This document shows positions 13,567 to 56,544 of a stretch of 64,000 nucleotides of DNA, piece by piece; the stretch's first letter is position 1, and each line of letters opens with the position of its first letter. A program made the translations under genes and the position numbers. Source of the stretch: Tubiluchus corallicola (lineage: Eukaryota; Animalia; Priapulida); contig JAQGDQ010000136.1 in assembly GCA_030141605.1 (NCBI GenBank), positions 62,001 through 126,000 of the forward strand, written 5' to 3'. Below the pieces are notes generated by a model. The model was given only the letters and a program-made list of their open reading frames with translations, searched no databases and had not been told where the DNA came from.

Positions 13567-13917
13567 TCATGCAAAATATTAGCAAAGTTAATTAAAAACA
13601 AATTATCGCGGCCAGTTAACATATAAAATATCCTAGTGCAGTAAAACGCTTACGAAATTTTCTCGTTTAATGCGACTTACGAATTTACATTCAAACAACA
13701 GATGAGGTGAGGTTTACCTCCCATCTAAATATTGGCACATATTATTATCTGCATAACCAATATTGTACAATAAATTATTAAAATTGTCTTGACAGGTAGG
13801 CAGCCTTGATAACCAAGATTGATAGGTAGGTAGGTAAGTAGGTAGGTAAGTAAGTATTTAAGTAATAATTCTTAATTATCTCTCTTAATTAATTCACCAT
13901 CAATTTCTCGAGTGCAA

Positions 13918-14415
13918 GGGAGGGGAGAAAAGGGAAAGAAAGAGAAAAGAAAAGAGAGGAGAGGAGAGGAGAGGAGAGAAGAGGAAAGGAGAGGAGAGGA
14001 GAAAAGAAGACAGCAGAGCGCAGCAGAGAAGAGACGAGAAGAGAAGAGAAGAGAAGAGAAGAGAAGAGAAGAGAAGAGAAGAGAAGAGAAGAGAAGAGAA
14101 GAGAAGAGAAGAGAAGAGAAGAGAAGAGAAGAGAAGAGAAGAGAAGAGAAGAGAAGAGAAGAGAAGAGAAGAGAAGAGAAGAAAAGAGAACAGAACCGAA
14201 CAGAAGAAAGGAAATGGAAGAGAAGAGAAGAGAAGAGAAGAGAAGAGAAGAGAAGAGAAGAGAAGAGAAGAGAAGAGAAGAGAAGAGAAGAGAAGAGAAG
14301 AGAAGAGAAGAGAAGAGAAGAGAAGAGAAGAGAAGAGAAGAGAAGGAAAGGAAAAGAAAACAAAAGAAAAACAGAAACAGAAAGAAAAGCAAAAAAGAAA
14401 GAGAAGAAGAAAAGA
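13918..14415. repeat. (GAAGA)n pentanucleotide microsatellite / polypurine tract
   Basis: Two long perfect runs (~14037-14181 and ~14217-14345) with degenerate flanks. Confidence 0.98.
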
Positions 14416-15999
14416 TAAGTAAAGTAAACAGCAAAAGTGCGCCATCAGTTAAACACATTACAGAGCACCCTCCCTCACTTATTGTTTACATCATCTATTA
14501 AGTGCTCTATATTTTTATTTATCCGATTCTTTTAAAACCTTAAAGCCAGCTGTAATAAAGAATTATTAAATCTTGCATAAGTCAAAGTTCATATGTATTT
14601 TAGTTACTCAAAACTTTATTATTTCAACAAATCGTCATAATTTACGACTAAAAATTTAGGAATAAACCCTTGTTTATTATAAATAATGTTTATTAACTTT
14701 CACCTGTAGTTAACTGGTTATTGTAGAAAACAATTTGTTATTGTAGAAAACTGTTTTTAAGTGTACATTGCTATTGGATTGTACGCACTCCCAGCATGCA
14801 CTTGTGCTGTCAGCCATTATTAACACAAAATCAATAAAGCGCCTATATATCTACTAACTCACGCAGTTGAACTTTTCTTCTTTTAATTTACAATTTGTGT
14901 TTTCAATAAATATAGTTTTTTTATGTTTTGCTGCATATGGCGCGCTGCTCTTTGTTTTTTCTTCGCTTTCTGTCACTTAACTCATAAAAGTTTTTTCTGT
15001 TTTACTTTATAAGCCTACTTTTTTCTATTTGTCGTTTCTTCTTTATCTTTTCTTATTCTCAAATTTATCCTATTATTTTCAAGTTTAAATTATACACACA
15101 TATATGTTTTCTGTTTCATATACCATTTCTTTTAGCTTCAAGTATTTTGCCTGTAACCATGATGAGGCTTATCTCTTAATTTCATATCTTTAAAAACCCA
15201 CGAATATTTCTATATATGCCTAGATCACTATTTCATATTCAGCCACAACAAGAATTCACTAAATACGTTTTTTGGAAAACTCGTCCGACAAAAAAGAGGA
15301 GAAAACATCGCTTCTTTTTTCAGGACAGATGTAGATGTTTTACTACAAAAATAAGTTACTATGCACATCAATAGCGGCAACGGAAACGAGACTAATATAG
15401 CTTTGTGACTGCAAATTCATTATCAGTTTCTCTCTAAATCACAGGGGAAAATGAAGTACTTTGGCATTTCTGAATAGTTGTACAAAAACGCCGTATTCTA
15501 CGTACCCGTCTACTCTAATTTACGTAGAGATGCATCATGAAAATTAATGCACCAAGTATACGCAATGATGAAGCTTTAACGAATGTCTCATTTAATTGCC
15601 CAAAGTGCTTCAAGCAACTGATAAAACTGTAAGTTTCTGCCAACGTCGAGCGCTAATATTTATTATTTTCGCAAATTTGCATAAGTGATAAACTGTAAAT
15701 TTCGGGACTATTTTTGATCACGTAACCTCGTAAAATTTTTAGCGTTACTTTCCGCATTTATTTACGTTGATCTTGTAGCGTTGGGCTACAACTAAGCCAC
15801 GCCAGCTTTTTTATTCAATCCAGTTTTGGTATGTACCATTAAGACTATGTACGATAACAGGTAAGCCTTATATACTAGTGTGTCTGTTTTAGGTTATATA
15901 TGCTATAACGAAGACCAAACATCTAGACTTTTATGAGTTAAAGACAAAACTTGATACATGCACTAAATAACAAACGAATTAAATTCAGACAAGCCAATT

Positions 16000-43439: not shown

Positions 43440-45887
<2,448 letters not shown>

Positions 45888-48834
45888 CCTATGCTCTTTT
45901 GTACAGTTTAGTTATTGCACTGTGAAACATTGTGTTGCTAAGCTGAGGTTTGCCTATAGGCATAATTTGCATATATATTAGCAGGTGTTCTTAGTAAGTA
46001 TAAAATGAAAATTTTAATTATCCAAAAAGTAAAAAAAAATTCTGTGCAATCTGTTAAATAGTATTTTATACATCACCTACCACATACCGTATCGAGCGGT
46101 TTTTCCCGTGCCTCTTATGTGTTGCATTGAATGACCTTGTCTGATGTTTGTTGTCAATTTTGTATTTTCTGGCTTTGTATACAACCCTATTTGTACTTAA
46201 ATCTATGTTTTGTGTTTGGTCTCGTTGAGGATTGCAGAAAATTTGTAGGCTCAGTCCTCAAATACCTATAATGCAAGGTGTCTTATATGCATTTTTGCGT
46301 TTGAAAAGCCTGTTATTGTGCTGTTGTAAGAGTTACGGCTTGTCATTAGTAAAAGTTTCTGGTTTGTCTCGTCTTCAAGATCGCTCAAAGAAACAAATTT
46401 AATGTGTTTTCTTATCAAATACAGCCACTTTACTTGTAACCATAACACTGCAACTAAAGATGGCATTTTAATTGAAAAGAGCTTCATCAACTACTAACAT
46501 TTTTTAGTACAACTTACAACTTGTTAAGATGTAATTAAGGCTCGAAAATGTAGTGCTAATCTGTTCAAAATCCCTAAAACTCAGTTAAATGTTCTTGGTG
46601 GTGCTAAGAACAGCCACACAATCATGTTTTGTTTCCATGTCACTGTAAAGTTGAAACAGACTCAGATTTGTATGACCTCAGAGCTGTAGAGTTGTGTTGA
46701 AGTCTACAGATGTACTTAGGTACTGAGTGCTACTAATTTACTTTAATGATTACAGTATAATTGCCTGAATATTGATAATATTTTGTTTAGTTTAAGTATC
46801 TTTCGTTTTTTGTTATGTTTACAAAGCGGTTCTTTTTGTAAAAATACAAACTATAAACTTTCACATGAACTCTTATGTGTGACACAAACCAGCAAGGCTG
46901 TCTTTAGAAATTAGATTGTTTAAAATTTACTAAGTAAGAAGGCTTACTTGTCGGCATAACAAACGGCATGCTGTTGGTTTAAGTCCCTGCAAAAGATCTA
47001 CTTACACAGTCAAGTTGTAATAGAACTATGAAATTCTAAGTTTCTGTGCATGTGATCAGCCTAGTTATGGTGTGTGCTGTGGCTAAAATGTATCAGGATC
47101 TTCTAGGCAGACAGAAGTAAAGCTATGTTCATGTCTTTTGTTTATGTAATGCTCCATTCTCACTTCTGTAATTGAAGTGGTTATCAGGTAAATACTTTTT
47201 GATTAAAATACTGCCTAACACTTCTAGAGTGGAGTTTTAGTTGAAAGTGAATTTCTAATTTCATCTTTATACATACATTATTGTAATCTTGTGTAATTCA
47301 TCACTCATTTTATGTACTCATCATATAGCTTTACTGTAAATCTATGTGCATTTTTCATAGATAGTGCAGCAAAATGTTTCTTGCAACAGGAAAGGTAGCA
47401 ACTTTCATGCCGGTGAAATCGTGGCTGCAAATTACGTTGTAGCTAGGTTAAACTTTAATTTGGTTTGTGGTGCCACCTGCATTTTAATTTTACAATTACA
47501 TGGATTTTTTCTATCAAATGGATTGCTTTAATGGTCTCTATGCAGTTAATATGTATATTAGTATGTTCTTATAGAATTGGTACAGTTGGTAAAAGTTCTC
47601 ATAATAGAGAATAGGAAAAACACATCGATTTGTTCACAGTAAATTATTTCCGGTAAATGAAAAAGTAAGAAAACGTCACTAAATCGCAATTTGTTTTAGA
47701 TTTTGTAGTGATAACACAATTTCTAATTAAACACAGATACATCACAATAGGAAAAATAATTGTTTTTTTTTGTGTTTTTCTGTGTATAATAAGTATTAGT
47801 GTTACTAAAAAATCTAAGCAATTGGCATATAGTGATTTATTTTGTTCTTTTTTACATGAACACGATTCACACTGGTGAACTTTGTGTGTTTGTGTTTTTT
47901 GTTTCTTTTATGGGCATTTTATTAAATGTGCTAACTTTATAAGTAGTGCTTATTGTGACTGATACATATCTAGTATTAGCTTCTTGGTATTTCTTCTTAA
48001 TTAAGCTGAATTGTATTTTCTTTTTTTTGTCTGCCGTAGTCATTCCTTGCCACTGCCTTATTGTTGACTTTCAGCCATATTTGTACTTAGAGCAGGGGAA
48101 TAATTAAAGCTTTGTCGTGACCATCTCTTCTGTTTTGTACTATGTAGGTTTTAATATTTAATTTTTTCATGGACTATCTGCGTTACAATGTGTTTGAGTA
48201 AGGGAAGAGCTCAGTTAAGTTAGAGCCCACCTAATGTAAGGAGAGCTCATTAGTCTGTATTTAATTTAAAGTGTGAAAAATATCATACCTTGTAATTGCT
48301 CTTAATATAATTATAAACAAACTTATAAACAATATAAACAGACTGTGTTTTGTTTTATTTTGGTGACATTTTATAACATTTTGAATTTCTCTTACTCCTT
48401 TTTCATACATACACGTAAGCGCTTTGTAACATACCGAGAAACGTGTTTTCACTTGATAAACAGTACTGTGGACACCACACTCGGGTTCAAATTTCTCTGG
48501 ATAACCTGAATTTTTATATAGTTCATATACTGGCTTATAGTTAACTACTACAGTAATAAATGGCCTGTAAATTTAAGAACAACAACATTCGTGTACATTT
48601 TAGGAAGTTTTGTTTTTGTGGCTATAAAAAATCAGCGGTGGTTGTATACTGAAGTGCACTGATCATTTACGAAACTTGTAATTGTACCTTAGGACATGTA
48701 GCCTCTCAGTGTGACAAACAATGAAAGAGCTAGCCTGGTGCCATAAATGCAGTGACTATTGGTCTGTTTCCAAAAAATGGGTAACTATAATACTATGAGT
48801 TGCATGTGTATTGTTCCACTGTTTTCCACTGAAT

Positions 48835-51365
48835 TCACTGTTTCCCACGTATTGTTCTCATACAGTTATATACTGCAGCCCAGTATCGGGTCGCATCAGG
48901 CGACCGAAAACCGTTGGGCCCTCCTCTATGTATGCGTGCAAAGTCCTCACACGTGGGTTGATGTGACAGCGTAGAAACTGTAGCATAGCGTCTCATGTAA
49001 GCTTCCATCATTCTTTCGCTACATTCGAACGTGGAGGCACAGTCCTTGAAATTTACTGTAAATAAACAAAGTTTGTTGATTAATAGGTACGACATTACCT
49101 GGTCCTGCTGTAATATTTTTTCAATTGACGTTTTGTAAAATTTTCGCTGCGACCAACGTTTGCTGTTGCTGTTGCTATAACGGTTGTTTCTATTGCTGCT
49201 GGCGTCGTTATTGTGTTGCTACTGCTACTGCCGTTGCTAGAGCCAAATTACAAGCTTTTGGGGCCCATAGGTTAATGATATTATTGACCCTCCCACAGAC
49301 GGAGCCACCCTCTATTTTGCTCGCATTCATCTCGAATATTTTTCTTGTGATCTGTTTTAGCAACATTTGATAGCTGGTGGTCCCATATTTCATATAATGG
49401 GCTTCAAACAGATGCCCTTGTCTCAAACAAAGGGCCCTTTACCTGAAATAAAAAGGCCTCAAACATCGATCCTTTATCTTAAACGAGGAGCCACTTTAAC
49501 ACTGGATTTTCTGACTTTCTGGCCCCTTTTTTAAAATTGAGGTTTTATTTTAAGTTACATGAATTATTAAGCAATGTCAACCTAGAGGGCACTAGGCTGT
49601 ACCCTATGGTAACCTATAAGGTAATCCAGCCCTAGTTGTTGCTCATATTGTGCAACTATTTACACTGACTTTCAGCATCTATACATCTAAACAATTTTAA
49701 ATAGAATATAGAAAGCATCTTTAATACCAAGTATTGTATTTACCTTGCGCGATACTAGGATCTTTTAACTGCGCATCAAGCCAAACAGCTCTATTAATAT
49801 TGTAAGGTCCGCAGTACTGAACTCCACTGGCTTGGTGACATATATTACGAGGAATGGTGCACTTTGTCTCTACCTCGCAAATACATCTCAGACACTTTGG
49901 TGGCAAATACGGTGCGTTTTCGGCTAGAAAATGAAAAAGGATTTACAACTGTTGAAAAGCAAGATCATGAACAACTGCTGGTTCAGTGACTTATCTTAGA
50001 GGCATACGTTTTATAATGTGTAAGTTCTGGTCCCGCCACAACCATTCAATTTAAGTAAAATCTGTCGTTGAATGCTCGATTCCGTCTTACAGGATTCCGA
50101 ATTGCTTAAAAACCTTCAGAAAAGCACATTTTAGGAATATTCCTCATCAAAGGTCAAGCTTGTCTGGCGAAATGAACAGAAACTATTTTTCTTTAAATAC
50201 TAAAATAAGTTTTTTGTTAATTACCTATTCTTAGATTAGTAAACTTACGTAAAGAGGGCAATGGTTCAGGTTTTGGAGTTGTTGCTGAAGGAATTTTTCC
50301 ACAGTTATTCCGCAGTTGCTGGGCACATCTTCTCCTTTCCCTTCCCAGATCTCTTTCCAGTCGCTGAGCTTGATTTTTATAACTGCTGCAAGTCTTGTTT
50401 AAAGTTGAAGTTTCCACCGTGAGTTGACGTGTTGCCGCCAGGTAGCGCTCGATTTCTTGGCGAAGGTTAGCATTCTCATCCCGAAGTTGATAATAACCAT
50501 TTCTGATCCTGTTATACCTGTATTAGAGCCAGCAAGATTATTAAGTTTGTATTGAACACAACTTTCAGTAAGGTAGAAGGTCGGTTTATGTAAGTTTTCT
50601 GGAAGTTTACAAACGGAAATATTATATATTACATAATTACCCGGTATTGCATCTGAATTGCTACATGATGATACCATAGGCCAGAGAAGGCTGAGTGTCT
50701 CCAGCACAGCGCAGCTGTGTGCCGTTATTGGCGTTATGCAATGTTACTATATTGTAATAGGTACTAGTCATTTTAGACCCAGTGTGTTTGCACAATTTAT
50801 GCGTTACCTTCTAGCAAGTCCGTCCCTTTCTTTTCCTAATTCTTCCACCTGCTGCTGAAGTTTGAACCTGCTGGTCGGGTGTGACGATCGTTCACTCTCA
50901 CATTCACCAGAGATGGGGATGATAAGCTTGTTTCTTTCCAGCGGTATCTGCTTGTAAATTAACGTGTATGAACTATTATTACATTTTTAATTTAATTGAT
51001 TCACGGATGTTTTTACTAAAAAGTGATATTTGACAGCACCTGCTAGCCGCATAATGTACTATCACATCTCTCCTTTTTTAGTTGTCTTTTTCATAAATCG
51101 TTAGGGTAGAAAAAACAATTATGAAATGAAAGAAAAGTAAGAGGAGAAAACTGAAACGAAAGTCAAAAAAATTAATAACGAACACGAATAAACAAAAGAG
51201 AAAAGAAAAAAATTTCGGAAAAGAAGACGGATAAACTCAACAAAAAAGGAGAATACGTGATAAGTGATGTAATACCTTAAAATGAAATGAACATGTTCCG
51301 TTGGCAAGTGTGCATTCCTGAGAAAAAATCGCCAAAATCATAACTGCATGCAAAACAAATTCCAT
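48835..51365 (-). CDS. Secreted coiled-coil protein with C-terminal i-type (destabilase) lysozyme domain, ~299 aa; exons 51276-51365, 50808-50947, 50249-50517, 49744-49923, 48835-49055
   Basis: Exons 4-5 give KCLRCICEVETKC...CGPYNI..VWLDA...CASTFECS...YMRRYAT...CEDFARIHRGGPNG...YWAAVYNC, the i-type lysozyme signature. Exons 1-3 join through GT-AG sites with matching phases (0, 2, 1, 1; 900 nt total). They add a signal peptide (MEFVLHAVMILAIFSQECTLA), NGTCSFHFKIP, a heptad-rich helix and a Pro/Thr linker. The lysozyme exons are very secure; the 5' exons are less so. Confidence 0.85.
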
Positions 51366-52616
51366 TAGTGTAAACGAGTGTTGATCCACAGTATTTCTGT
51401 TCCTATTTTTTCAATTATTTTGCAACGCCACCATTAAGAAATCTTGGTTTATTCTAAAAATTCACTGTTCGGTGAAATCATTTTGTCAAACTAGCTGCAA
51501 GACTATGAACAGGAAATGGATGGAAAAACACACTAGAAAAACACCAGGAAAACCAAATATGGAGATTTACAGGTGTAAATTGGCACATTCTCAAGATAAT
51601 CCTCACCGAAGGACATCCAACTGCAATTCTTTGTCTGTTCCCTTACTTGATAAAACTTGATAAAAATACAATAATTGCGATGACAGAAAGATTCAAATAA
51701 AAGTTGAATAAAAAATCAGCTAAAGTTTTTATAGATCATAAAGACTTCAATAAGGTCCTCTGGATCTTTTGTCAGTAATCGCCATAATATGTGCCTTATA
51801 CACTGTGCTTACTTTACTGTTGGTTCTGTTGTTACTGTTGTTGCTGCTGCAAGCCTAAATTATAGTTCAATGGGTTTTACGGAACCAGGTGTAGTTAAAA
51901 ACTGTAGGCTGTTGCCGCTACCGTTTGAAGGAATTTCCACTGCCACTTTAATTTCAGATATTACTAATTTCTGTGTTATTCGCTTGCAAAGTAACTCTAT
52001 AAAGAGATCTCTTTTGCCGTTATGTTGTTGCTGTTTTTCTTCTCCATGTTCTTCGTGTAATAAATTTTCATCAATTTTTAATGTTGTTACATCACAATAG
52101 AGTTACTCCATATTCCAAATTTTTACGAAAACGGATTCATGACAACGATGAATGGTGTTGTAAGTGATGTTCTACTATCCATGCAGTTCAGCAGAAAACA
52201 CTGAGATGAGCGAGCAAACCAGGGCTCCTCATTCCCGACTACTTTGTGATTAATTTATTGTGTTTAAAATGATCTGCCTGGAACTAATTATTAAAGATGT
52301 CAAACAGTCTTAATTTCAAGATTAATTTTATTAACAGAATAAAGTCACAACTATTATGCTTCCCAAATTCAGCCAAAAAATGTTTTTCCATCATCACCAA
52401 TAATCTTGAAATTAAGATTTAATTGAAGAATAGTGTCAACTAAACTGATGGCATTGAAATGTGTGGTATGAAATAAACAAAAAAATTCATAAAAGATATT
52501 TTTCAAGTACAGTTTTTTATTAATTACAAAAGGAATTAAAATGTAAGCAGCCTTCAAAAATTATACACAAGTATAACAAGGTAACAAGAATACTTGATAT
52601 TTCACTATTTGTGTTC

Positions 52617-55600
52617 TCACTTATTCCATCTCAAAAAGTTTCTCACAGAATTTAAAAAATATCTAATTCCACCAGCACGTGATTCGGTTTTCGTTTTCAT
52701 GATGAGTTTAATCCACTTCACGAAATTGGGAACTTTCCCGTAAATGCCATATCGACCATCTAGGCCACATCCTCTACCAAAACTCGTTACACCATAAACG
52801 CTCCATTTACCATCAATTTCACACATGAGTGGACCTCCTGAATCCCCAGAGCACGAGTCAGCTCTTCCATTTCGATACCCAGCGCACATCATGTTTTTAC
52901 TGATGAAATATCCTTCATATTCATCCACACAAATATCCCTTGGAACGAGCGGCACAAAAGCCTCGTGTAACACAGTAGCTCCTTCTTCGTGTTGTTCATT
53001 CTCCTTTCCCCAGCCAACTATTGCGCATCTTGTCCTGGAGGGAAGCTCAATTCGTTTTGGCGGGAGACAGATGAACTTTCCATCATACAACGGCATCCGA
53101 AGTCGTAGGAGAGCAATGTCATTGTCAACGGAGTTAACGTCATAGTCAGGATGTACATAAGGCTTCTCTATTTTTATCATTTTTTCACCGCCTTCTCTGG
53201 AATACAAATCGTGCTCATTGATCATTGCATAAGAACGTTTCTTGACACAGTGTGCAGCAGTGAGAACCCAGTCAGGAGCGATGAGAACTCCCCCGCAGTA
53301 TTGCTCTTTAAACCTGTTAAGCAGCGCCACCTATAGGCAAACAATGAAACAAATGAAAGCAGTCATTCTATATGAAATCAGTGAAATTGGCACTTGAAAT
53401 AGATGCGCCTTGAAAGATCAATAATAAGAAAGTGAAATACTTAAAACGAGTAACAAAAGACTAGGAAAACAGAAAAAACAGAGACAAAGTAAATAAGGAA
53501 TGGAGAGAGAGAGAGACACAGAGAGAGAACGAAAGGGGAAAAAAGAGAGGGAACTAGACTGTTATGATAATAGTTAAAGCCACAATAAAAACTGGCGGCA
53601 AGTAGAACATAGTACAAACCGTATAATCCAACACAAACGAAATTAAGGCCAAGCAAAGAAAAGTAAACAGTCATTTCCATTTACCTGCCATGGCCACCTT
53701 CCTGGACTAGATTCCCGTCCTCCATATATTCTTGTGGAAACTATGCCAGAAAAGTCAGATAAACCACATTCAGCAGGCAGCTGGTTTATCAAACCTAGAA
53801 ATAGGATTCGTCACGTCAAACATTTACACATTTGTGCACAATTTACCTTAAAGGAAAGCCAAACCTTCTCAGAAGTTGGGTTTATTTCAAAGTTTGCAAA
53901 AAGTTAGAAGTTAAAAGTGTTTTAAGCGCGTAATTAAGTAAACGATCATTTAAGGTAAAGATCAATTCATGCTTGGGCTCTCTCATTTCAAAAGCTTATT
54001 CTTCCATCAGTGCCATTCGTCAACTGAAGAAAAGAAAAGCAGTTCACTGTCCGTCAAAAGCGTAGTAAGCTTTTACAACAAATTAGATAGCTATTTTGTG
54101 ACATTTTTGCATGGAGCTGCAGAAGTTTGAATTAGTTTAAGCAGCGCATGCTTACAGAAAGGAAGACGCACTCACGAAGCCAACCAATTTCATCATGGCC
54201 TTCAAATGAATGGTGGCTAGCACAGTACCATCATGCCTGAAAATTTCTACACAGCAGTGGCATAAATCAGCTTTATACTTTATTGACGTTTTTGCAAATT
54301 TCTTAGCTATATGTTTCAAAGTTTAAGTGGACATGCTAAGTGACTTGTCCTTTCATTTAAGTGGAAGAAAAAGAAAAGAAAAAGAAACAACTACAGTCAA
54401 AAGTGCCCTGTAGTCCCATTCAGCTGAAAAAGTCACCTTTGGTTTAGTGGGACTGAATGTCATGATGATGAGGCTAACAACATCATGATGAGATACAACG
54501 ACAATAATGCTGATGATAAGGATAATAAAAATTCCAATGATCATAATTACAAAAACGATTAGGCATACCTCTAGTGTAATTTTGATTTGCCAGAATCATT
54601 TGTTCACAAGCACTGCCCTCTGGTGCGCATTCTGCTTGCTCGGTGATGACGTCACCACGGCAGTAGTGCTTCTTCACACAGGTCCGATGTCGCCGACGAT
54701 AGCAGGTGCGTGTGCAGCGTGACCATGGTGTCCATTCAGAGAAGTATTCAGGATTGGCATTGCGCTGTTGAGACCTTCTATCTAAGTGGTCGGCCCCATG
54801 ATCTGGACAGTTACCTTCGAAGCAACTGCGCATCTGAAAAAAAGATATATTATGAGTATAACCTTAGTAACTCCATTAATTCATTACTCCAAGCAACAAA
54901 GGCAACGTTGTCTTGGCTATGTTTGAATTCGGGAAGTCAAGAAATGGCAGATTTATGACTTAAAAATAAATGTAAACGATTTTTTAAATATTTTCATCAC
55001 AATTACTGTCATTTTAACTTGTTTTTCAAATGGTATGTCTCTGAGTCACTTCCTGAAAGTGTGACTGGCACATTGCAATTGACATATTTTTTGTGTTTTT
55101 GCTATAGACATATTTTTTGTTTGTGTTTTATAAGGTTGGCCTCAGTGGCTTTTGGCGGCTTTGAAATGTACAAAGACGCTTGTACTGGCTTGACATAAAG
55201 ACCAAGTAATTTTCAAGGTCAAGCGTTATTTCATGTGCCAATTAGGTTACCTTGATTTCAGCAGATGATGTTAGTACAAAACGTCCTGGCGATATTCAAA
55301 ATCTGTCAAATGTTACAATGACTTCTTTCACTAATAGTGGTAGTAACTGTGCCATGTTTGACCTTAAACGCCTCGCAGATATAAGATACTTAAACACGTG
55401 GAGTGAGACCTAGTTTGTTTAGCTTGCGCTTGTGGTAGTTTTACCGATTACCTCCTTTAACTTGTTGCTGCCGCAAACAGACATATCTCTGCAGTGTCTG
55501 ATTCTATGCTGACGACATCTAGCATTGCATGTGGTCCATTCGCCCCAAGGTGTATAGATTTCATCGTAAGACACCTCCGCGTAATCCGAAGGTGCTACTT

Positions 55601-56544
55601 TTTCATATTCCTTGGTGACATTAGTCGATCCAAAAGGTGACACTGTGCTATTTGTGTCTGGTGCATCATCAGACCAGGCTTCCTTAAAGCAAAAATTCAT
55701 TGCAAGATGTGGATAAACAATTACAGATTAAAAAAAGAATAAATAGAGGGTACTATATAGACGTCAAGCTGAAGTACAGATTTAATTATCTGATAGATTG
55801 ATCTAAAATTAATGCAAGAAATTTCTGTGAACAGACCGTACGACCAGCCCTATGAACAGTTATCACATCCTTATAACGCTGGATTAATTAATGCCAATGG
55901 TGCTAATTTTGTTTGTATTAACTGATTTGAAATCCAACATTACCTATATAATCCACTGAATTGTCTGCATTAGCCACCTTTTTCGGCACTATTTAAAAAG
56001 AGAACTGTTTTGACAACTCTTGCTTAGTTAATGTAGACTTACAGTTGCAAACAGTGCCTTTTAATTGTCTTCTCAGTGATATTGCTCACGATACAGTCAT
56101 GATTCAGTTTTTTTTTTATTCGAAGCGCGAGCCGATATAATTTTACATCTATCTGTAGACAACAAGTCTGTAAGCATGCGATCACATCTCGTATGCTCTC
56201 TATAATTACACCAACTACTCCAGAGCACTAAATATACCAACGTAAAATAATGCAGAAATTGCAGTTACAAACATATATATCCATATCCATATCGAAATAT
56301 ACATGTAACAGGTAATATGAAAAATTATTATTATTAGTCCATCTGAATGCAAATAGAACGTCAGCACTCAACCCGTTAAGCTGATTATTCATAACCGGAT
56401 GTTAACGTCTTGAATATACTAATAGGTCGTATTTACCTTAAACAGGTTCCAGCCCCATGAATAATACCAGCTGTCTGAATCCTGGCAATAGACATTGATT
56501 TGTATCGTCGCAACCAATAACAACACTTCCTTTAAAGATGCCAT
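52617..56544 (-). CDS. Secreted S1A trypsin-like serine protease with two thrombospondin type-1 repeats, 475 aa; exons 56437-56544, 55452-55682, 54569-54833, 53685-53794, 52617-53330
   Basis: Signal peptide MASLKEVLLLVATIQINVYC. TSP1 motifs PWGEWTTCNARCRQHRIRHC and SEWTPWSRCTRTCYRRRHRTC. Zymogen activation site CG...STR/IYGG, followed by WPWQVAL. Intact triad TAAHC, DNDIALL, GDSGGP; Asp in the S1 pocket (ADSCSGDS). GT-AG introns with phases 0, 0, 1, 0; 1428 nt. Confidence 0.93.

Follow-up and report, generated by a model that had tools for sequence, protein, structure and literature searches.

The window analyzed here, a 64,000-nucleotide stretch of the genome of Tubiluchus corallicola, contains a gene whose predicted product joins a coiled-coil stalk to an i-type lysozyme head in which alanine occupies the position of the catalytic aspartate, an architecture that has apparently not been described so far. 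Judging from the sequence, we favor, with moderate confidence, the reading that this product is a secreted, bivalent, and poorly lytic glycan-binding protein that is carried on a predicted rod and traps or clumps microbes.

The gene spans 2,531 nt of the minus strand (48835..51365) and has five exons, with GT..AG boundaries at all four introns and intron phases of 0/2/1/1. The exons total 900 nt and form one open frame of 299 amino acids that contains the peptides quoted in the first-pass annotation, so the five phase-compatible exons proposed there are upheld. On the minus strand, exon 1 (51276..51365) provides the ATG, a signal-like peptide (residues 1–21), and a G-x-C-x-F-x-F motif that includes Cys25 (51293–51291). 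Exon 2 (50808..50947) encodes the remainder of a two-cysteine segment (with Cys46 at 50902–50900), a short linker, and the first residues of the coiled coil (from residue 57, at 50869), and exon 3 (50249..50517) encodes the main coiled coil, a leucine zipper that extends to residue 141 (50325), and a Pro/Thr hinge with Cys141 and Cys149. The lysozyme head is divided between exon 4 (49744..49923), which encodes its first half, and exon 5 (48835..49055), which encodes the second half with Ser239, His269 (48930–48928), and the stop codon; Pfam Destabilase matches these two exons separately (E 2e-10 and 2e-14, respectively), as expected from the lysozyme domain recognized earlier. The first AATAAA past the stop codon (48354..48359, minus strand) is a candidate polyadenylation signal.

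The spliced form of this gene is matched by P0001, a 307-residue Logan protein that was found with exon 3 alone as the query and is encoded on a single contig of 1,182 nt. An end-to-end alignment of P0001 with the spliced window model has 251 identical residues at 307 aligned positions (82%) and crosses every one of the four junctions; three of these are free of gaps, and near the first there is just one gap, of a single residue, 11 residues beyond it (from the coiled coil onward, a P0001 residue number is the window number plus 8). Because the window gene takes up 2,531 nt, the P0001 contig has no room for introns of this size; this contig is most likely a spliced mRNA from a related species, and may instead be a retrocopy. 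At the level of sequence, the match to P0001 confirms that the window gene is real and spliced as modeled. It is very improbable that the model is an artifact made of two adjacent genes, or of a lysozyme with a short leader of its own and unrelated upstream exons: P0001 comes from a single contig, but it reproduces the whole product, including the junction regions. The first-pass annotation had itself raised the short-leader possibility, yet a scan of introns 1–3 for an in-phase mini-exon running from an ATG to a splice donor returned two candidates, neither of which is hydrophobic (best 0.78). The proposed signal peptide stands as a hydrophobic leader (residues 1–21, judged from hydropathy, Kyte-Doolittle up to 2.7 over 9 residues) in which 18 of 21 residues are identical between the window and P0001, and its cleavage after Ala21 is a by-eye call.

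The segment that follows the leader (residues 22–47, with Cys25 and Cys46) is identical to P0001 at 23 of 26 positions, and in the AlphaFold2 monomer model its pLDDT is <50 across P0001 residues 28–50. Its G-x-C-x-F-x-F motif presumably echoes the G-x-C-x-[FY]-x-F start of angiopoietins and myocilin, from which the first-pass annotation had assigned the stalk to that type. This assignment was not sustained: the angiopoietin/myocilin stalk family is absent from the 20 Pfam matches obtained at E ≤ 10 (the 19 matches other than Destabilase are weak and below cut-off), the two-cysteine segment is modeled with low confidence, and a comparison of the stalk with the Atlas returned nothing at or above 0.8, the best match (0.77) being unnamed and uninformative. 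The heptad-rich helix that had been proposed is well supported, since the fraction of hydrophobic residues at the a and d positions is 0.71 in one register and 0.04–0.50 in the other six, and AlphaFold2 models one helix at P0001 residues 63–149 (block pLDDT 73–94); in the window protein, residues 57–141 form a single helix of ∼85 residues. The d positions of this zipper are rich in leucine, and the a positions contain Val, Ile, Thr, Asn92, and Cys120, which is the usual pattern in parallel two-stranded zippers. The stalk has a basic pI of about 10, and a phase-1 intron separates the end of its Pro/Thr hinge from the start of the head.

When two copies of P0001 residues 23–165 were modeled, they formed a parallel, in-register coiled coil with a score of 0.57, compared with 0.00 for the best of three controls, which were unrelated proteins not picked as coiled coils. 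At least 64% of the contacts recur between runs, the partner pLDDT is at least 71, and the contacts extend in register from residue 64 to 149 of P0001 and include Cys128–Cys128′ (window Cys120). Among microbial proteins, 21 of 30 solved pairs and none of 23 single chains attained the mark used for a dimer; 7 of 16 animal pairs and none of 30 eukaryotic single chains did so, as did just one of seven eukaryotic pairs that have no older solved relative. Because many leucine zippers have been solved, resemblance to them may account for the pass. As the first-pass annotation had suggested, the stalk is thus predicted to pair with itself, as a parallel dimer in a model that folded two copies and does not discriminate between a dimer and a trimer or tetramer. 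Removal of the leader would leave a chain with 15 cysteines (5 in the stalk and 10 in the head), all of which are retained in P0001, and this odd count fits at least one interchain bond. Disulfide-linked chains, which had also been proposed, are therefore likely on this modeling, with an interchain disulfide predicted at Cys120 and perhaps another at Cys141; the two-copy model gave no confident contacts before P0001 residue 64, the region that includes the two-cysteine segment. The model therefore speaks neither for nor against the multivalent bouquet put forward in the first-pass annotation.

By both profile and fold, the head belongs to the i-type family. The full protein matches PF05497 (Destabilase) with an E value of 1.2e-27 and 96.8 bits against a cut-off of 26.2, covering positions 3–116 of the 116-position profile, and Foldseek assigns the i-type fold with an E value of 1.7e-9. 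The head superimposes on leech destabilase with Z 19.2 and an rmsd of 1.9 Å over 117 residues; across the leech (8BBU/8BBW), Tapes (2DQA), and Meretrix (3AB6) structures, Z is 17.6–19.2 and the rmsd is about 2 Å. The next structural neighbors are lytic transglycosylases that use a single Glu (Z about 11).

In leech destabilase, the muramidase dyad is reported to be Glu34/Asp46, and the isopeptidase activity has been proposed to use Ser51 (or Ser49) with His112 and Glu34 (PMC10126035). In the alignment to the leech structure, Glu185 (49870–49868) corresponds to the catalytic Glu34 and is retained, as are Ser239 and His269 (the equivalents of Ser82 and His112). Ala198 (49831–49829) lies at the Asp46 position, and Val201 and Tyr203 lie at the Ser49 and Ser51 positions, in both the window protein and P0001. 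The head therefore has the Glu of an active muramidase and lacks the Asp, and it has the His and Glu of a serine-type destabilase isopeptidase and lacks both serines. A serine is present at position 199, in the same loop as Ala198. The pairwise alignments to three solved structures are ungapped at this loop; family-wide, it aligns poorly, and its column, gapped in 86 of 169 domains, was left unused. In alignment A1, the catalytic Asp is present in 16 of 29 other rows and the Glu in 21 of 29. Two further cleft positions differ from the commonest family residue (Gln to Asn208 and Asn to Arg270), suggesting that the ligand may have changed.

The head is the best conserved part of the protein and exceeds the coiled coil in this respect: the window protein and P0001 are identical at 119 of 127 head positions (94%) and at 65 of 82 coiled-coil positions (79%; Fisher p 0.002), which indicates that the head is under strong constraint. 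A conserved head from which the Asp is gone suggests that the cleft is selected for a role that is different from, or weaker than, classical double-displacement hydrolysis. With Glu and His kept and single-Glu enzymes as structural neighbors, loss of the Asp need not abolish activity; in g-type lysozymes, substitutions of the Asp are reported to cut activity 10–300-fold, not to nil (PMC4914998).

The first-pass annotation knew of no described protein with this architecture, and the searches agree with its being rare. A HMMER search of 1.84 billion representatives yielded 757 relatives at E ≤ 0.001, and among the best 150 of these, P0001 is the sole whole-length match. When 150 further i-type relatives (the best of the 757) were screened, none had this stalk. 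Two word-index searches, a kind of search that is weak evidence for absence, returned P0001 alone: one had exon 3 as its query and took in longer proteins only (103 candidates), and the other had P0001 (761 candidates). A home-made, uncalibrated heptad score placed P0001 first (1.02) among 151 proteins, and the runners-up were helices that belong to lysozyme domains, the C-terminal tail of P0107, P0005 (0.84), and spacers rich in Gln in the arthropod proteins P0128 and P0028. A metagenome scan gave 61 pattern matches, and the one that passed was rejected as fortuitous, since it lies out of frame within a bacterial ORF. In the literature searched by title and the start of the abstract, a scope outside of which most subscription journals fall, no i-type lysozyme with a coiled coil was found. 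The premise that i-type lysozymes are usually small single-domain proteins has to be softened, as multidomain members are common, for example the SH3b-lysozymes described in PMC11083476. Many of the other relatives are also multidomain, with tandem lysozyme repeats, Cys-rich N-terminal repeats (in echinoderms), or Pro-, Asn-, or Gln-rich spacers; the echinoderm proteins P0007, P0012, and P0017 (Amphiura and Holothuria) have N-terminal Cys-rich repeats that end in C-C and have no Pfam match at E ≤ 10. Each ingredient of the window protein has precedent, in a family that fuses domains readily.

One of the best 150 relatives, P0005 (Logan, 237 aa), has a shorter and apparently unrelated helical stalk. 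It has a leader and a single Cys, a helix of 58 residues (39–96), and an i-type head that retains both Glu and Asp. Its stalk has no significant similarity to that of P0001 (50 of 500 shuffles attain the score), and in the Atlas P0005 matches small single-domain lysozyme clusters, none of them at or above 0.9. The P0005 head is nearest to the window head in both trees (SH-aLRT 96 in the quick tree of 49 rows; 91/73, unstarred, in the careful tree of 26 rows), and P0005 may represent either a distant sister or a form that arose independently. The window head groups with echinoderm- and hemichordate-like sequences with SH-aLRT 99 in the quick tree and weakly in the careful tree, and among the matches listed the named sequences closest to it are lysozymes of echinoderms and hemichordates (about 41–43% over the head).

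Collectins and ficolins multiply a weak glycan-binding head on a stalk, and the layout of the window protein follows a similar logic. It differs from them in having no collagen Gly-X-Y in its 299 residues, in its head, and in being predicted as a dimer rather than a trimer. Myocilin is described as having a leader, two Cys, a coiled coil, a linker, and a head, and as forming a Y-shaped dimer of dimers (PMC6890424). The parts of the window protein follow the same order, with the two Cys near the N terminus and the head at the C terminus, but its two Cys are spaced 21 residues apart, and its head is a lysozyme rather than the olfactomedin or fibrinogen-like domain of myocilin and the angiopoietins. 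With the i-type/destabilase family (PF05497), it has in common the fold, 10 family cysteines, the catalytic Glu, and the Ser82/His112 equivalents, and it departs from that family in having Ala for Asp, no Ser49/Ser51, an N-terminal stalk of ∼150 residues, and a predicted dimer. The SH3b-i-type lysozymes of clitellates and mussels (Ealb-iLys, Ea-iLys, and HcLyso4) likewise have a signal peptide, an N-terminal accessory module, a linker, and a destabilase head, but in them this module is a proposed wall-binding beta-barrel and not an oligomerizing rod, and their Glu and Asp are intact (PMC11083476). Insect i-types are reported to typically lack the catalytic residues and to be non-catalytic, and a mud-crab i-type (Splys-i) is reported to bind and agglutinate bacteria without cleaving them (Zhou 2017, as cited in PMC13736114). 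These muramidase-deficient arthropod proteins have the loss of catalytic residues in common with the window protein, and binding or agglutination is proposed or reported for them; however, the section on them in the same source describes no stalk (PMC13736114), and the window head falls, in the quick tree, among the echinoderm- and hemichordate-like sequences.

In the reading we prefer, the 299-residue protein would be secreted, and its 85-residue leucine-zipper rod would pair in parallel and hold two i-type heads. Having Ala for Asp, these heads would bind peptidoglycan or other GlcNAc polymers with little cutting, and the paired heads could cross-link or trap microbes; the dimers might also cluster through Cys25 and Cys46. 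Ala198 and the absence of the isopeptidase serines, which the first-pass annotation had overlooked, strengthen its idea of binding and agglutination. A more specific form of this proposal, which we consider doubtful, is a disarmed head on a disulfide-locked zipper whose two-cysteine segment bundles the dimers, that is, a lineage-specific, lysozyme-headed counterpart of the ficolins and collectins in a basal ecdysozoan, with P0005 as its still-catalytic sister.

The head may instead be an enzyme that uses Glu185 alone or with His269 (as a weak or inverting muramidase or chitinase, a transglycosylase, or an isopeptidase-like protein), and the rod would then dimerize it, attach it to mucus or to the lining of the gut, or hold it in check until cleavage of the hinge; this is possible, although we think it rather unlikely. 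It is consistent with the retention of Glu185, Ser239, and His269, with the 94% identity of the head, with the single-Glu enzymes that have the same fold, and with P0005, which is helix-stalked and has both Glu and Asp. Isopeptidase-active arthropod i-types without Ser49/Ser51 are reported (PMC10126035), as is an insect i-type that uses a shifted Glu34/Asp50 dyad (PMC12766996), but classical i-type muramidase catalysis is stated to require both Glu and Asp (PMC13736114). The hairpin at residues 195–209 of the window protein contains neither Asp nor Glu that could serve as a replacement nucleophile.

The priapulid cuticle contains chitin, and lysozyme-like proteins are found among gamete proteins. 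The product could be a non-immune extracellular protein whose rod fixes a GlcNAc-binding head to a surface of the animal itself, such as the chitinous cuticle, the lining of the gut, mucus, or the coat of the egg. NAG oligomers are ligands of this fold (3AB6 and 2DQA are among the top structural matches), the basic stalk (pI about 10) could attach to a matrix of polyanions, coiled coils of the myocilin type have been described as sticky and matrix-binding (PMC6890424), and the slow evolution of the head suits a self ligand. In the literature consulted, however, non-catalytic i-types are tied to antimicrobial roles (PMC13736114), and we regard this matrix function as improbable. If the window protein does bind and clump bacteria, it would represent a third route to a multivalent microbe sensor, besides the collagen-stalked lectins and the fibrinogen-related proteins, in which a lysozyme cleft has been reused as a binding head. 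It is a candidate effector for priapulid immunity, a subject on which our literature search found no lysozyme paper, and it would allow a clean test of the role of Asp-less i-types, since valency and catalysis are separable in it. If it is merely a tethered weak enzyme, it would be one more fusion in a readily fusing family.

Two genes flank the lysozyme gene. A RhoA-like gene (43440–48290, plus strand) has splice joints at 43677/45104 and 45293/45653 in RNA contigs of run X2, which is spliced RNA from a diverged relative and covers this gene and part of the protease gene on the other side. The same run gave no coverage of the lysozyme gene, a result that says nothing for or against its expression. 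Conserved non-coding patches continue out to 48290, suggesting a 3′ UTR of ∼2.4 kb, and the end of this UTR would lie tail-to-tail with the lysozyme gene, within about 70 nt of its first AATAAA. On the other side, a serine protease gene (52617–55727, minus strand) lies 1.25 kb upstream of the lysozyme gene on the same strand. Its trypsin domain is encoded in a single exon of 237 codons (Pfam E 1.7e-53), and its upstream exons are Cys/Trp-rich and resemble thrombospondin-1 repeats by eye, with no Pfam match at E ≤ 0.01. The best single-domain match of the protease is Priapulus caudatus P0173 (58% over 239 residues), and they form a sister pair with support of 100/99 in a tree built from 24 sequences, in which there is no other scalidophoran; from this one gene, the host would be placed as a priapulid-like worm. 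Contigs of run X1 contain the introns of the lysozyme gene, and many diverged X1 contigs are attracted by repeats at 49160–49590 (intron 4) and 51860–52190 (upstream of exon 1), which are likely dispersed repeats and CAG/CAA-type microsatellites. Elsewhere in the window, a long pentanucleotide-type simple repeat (13872–14501) gives rise to spurious ORFs on both strands.
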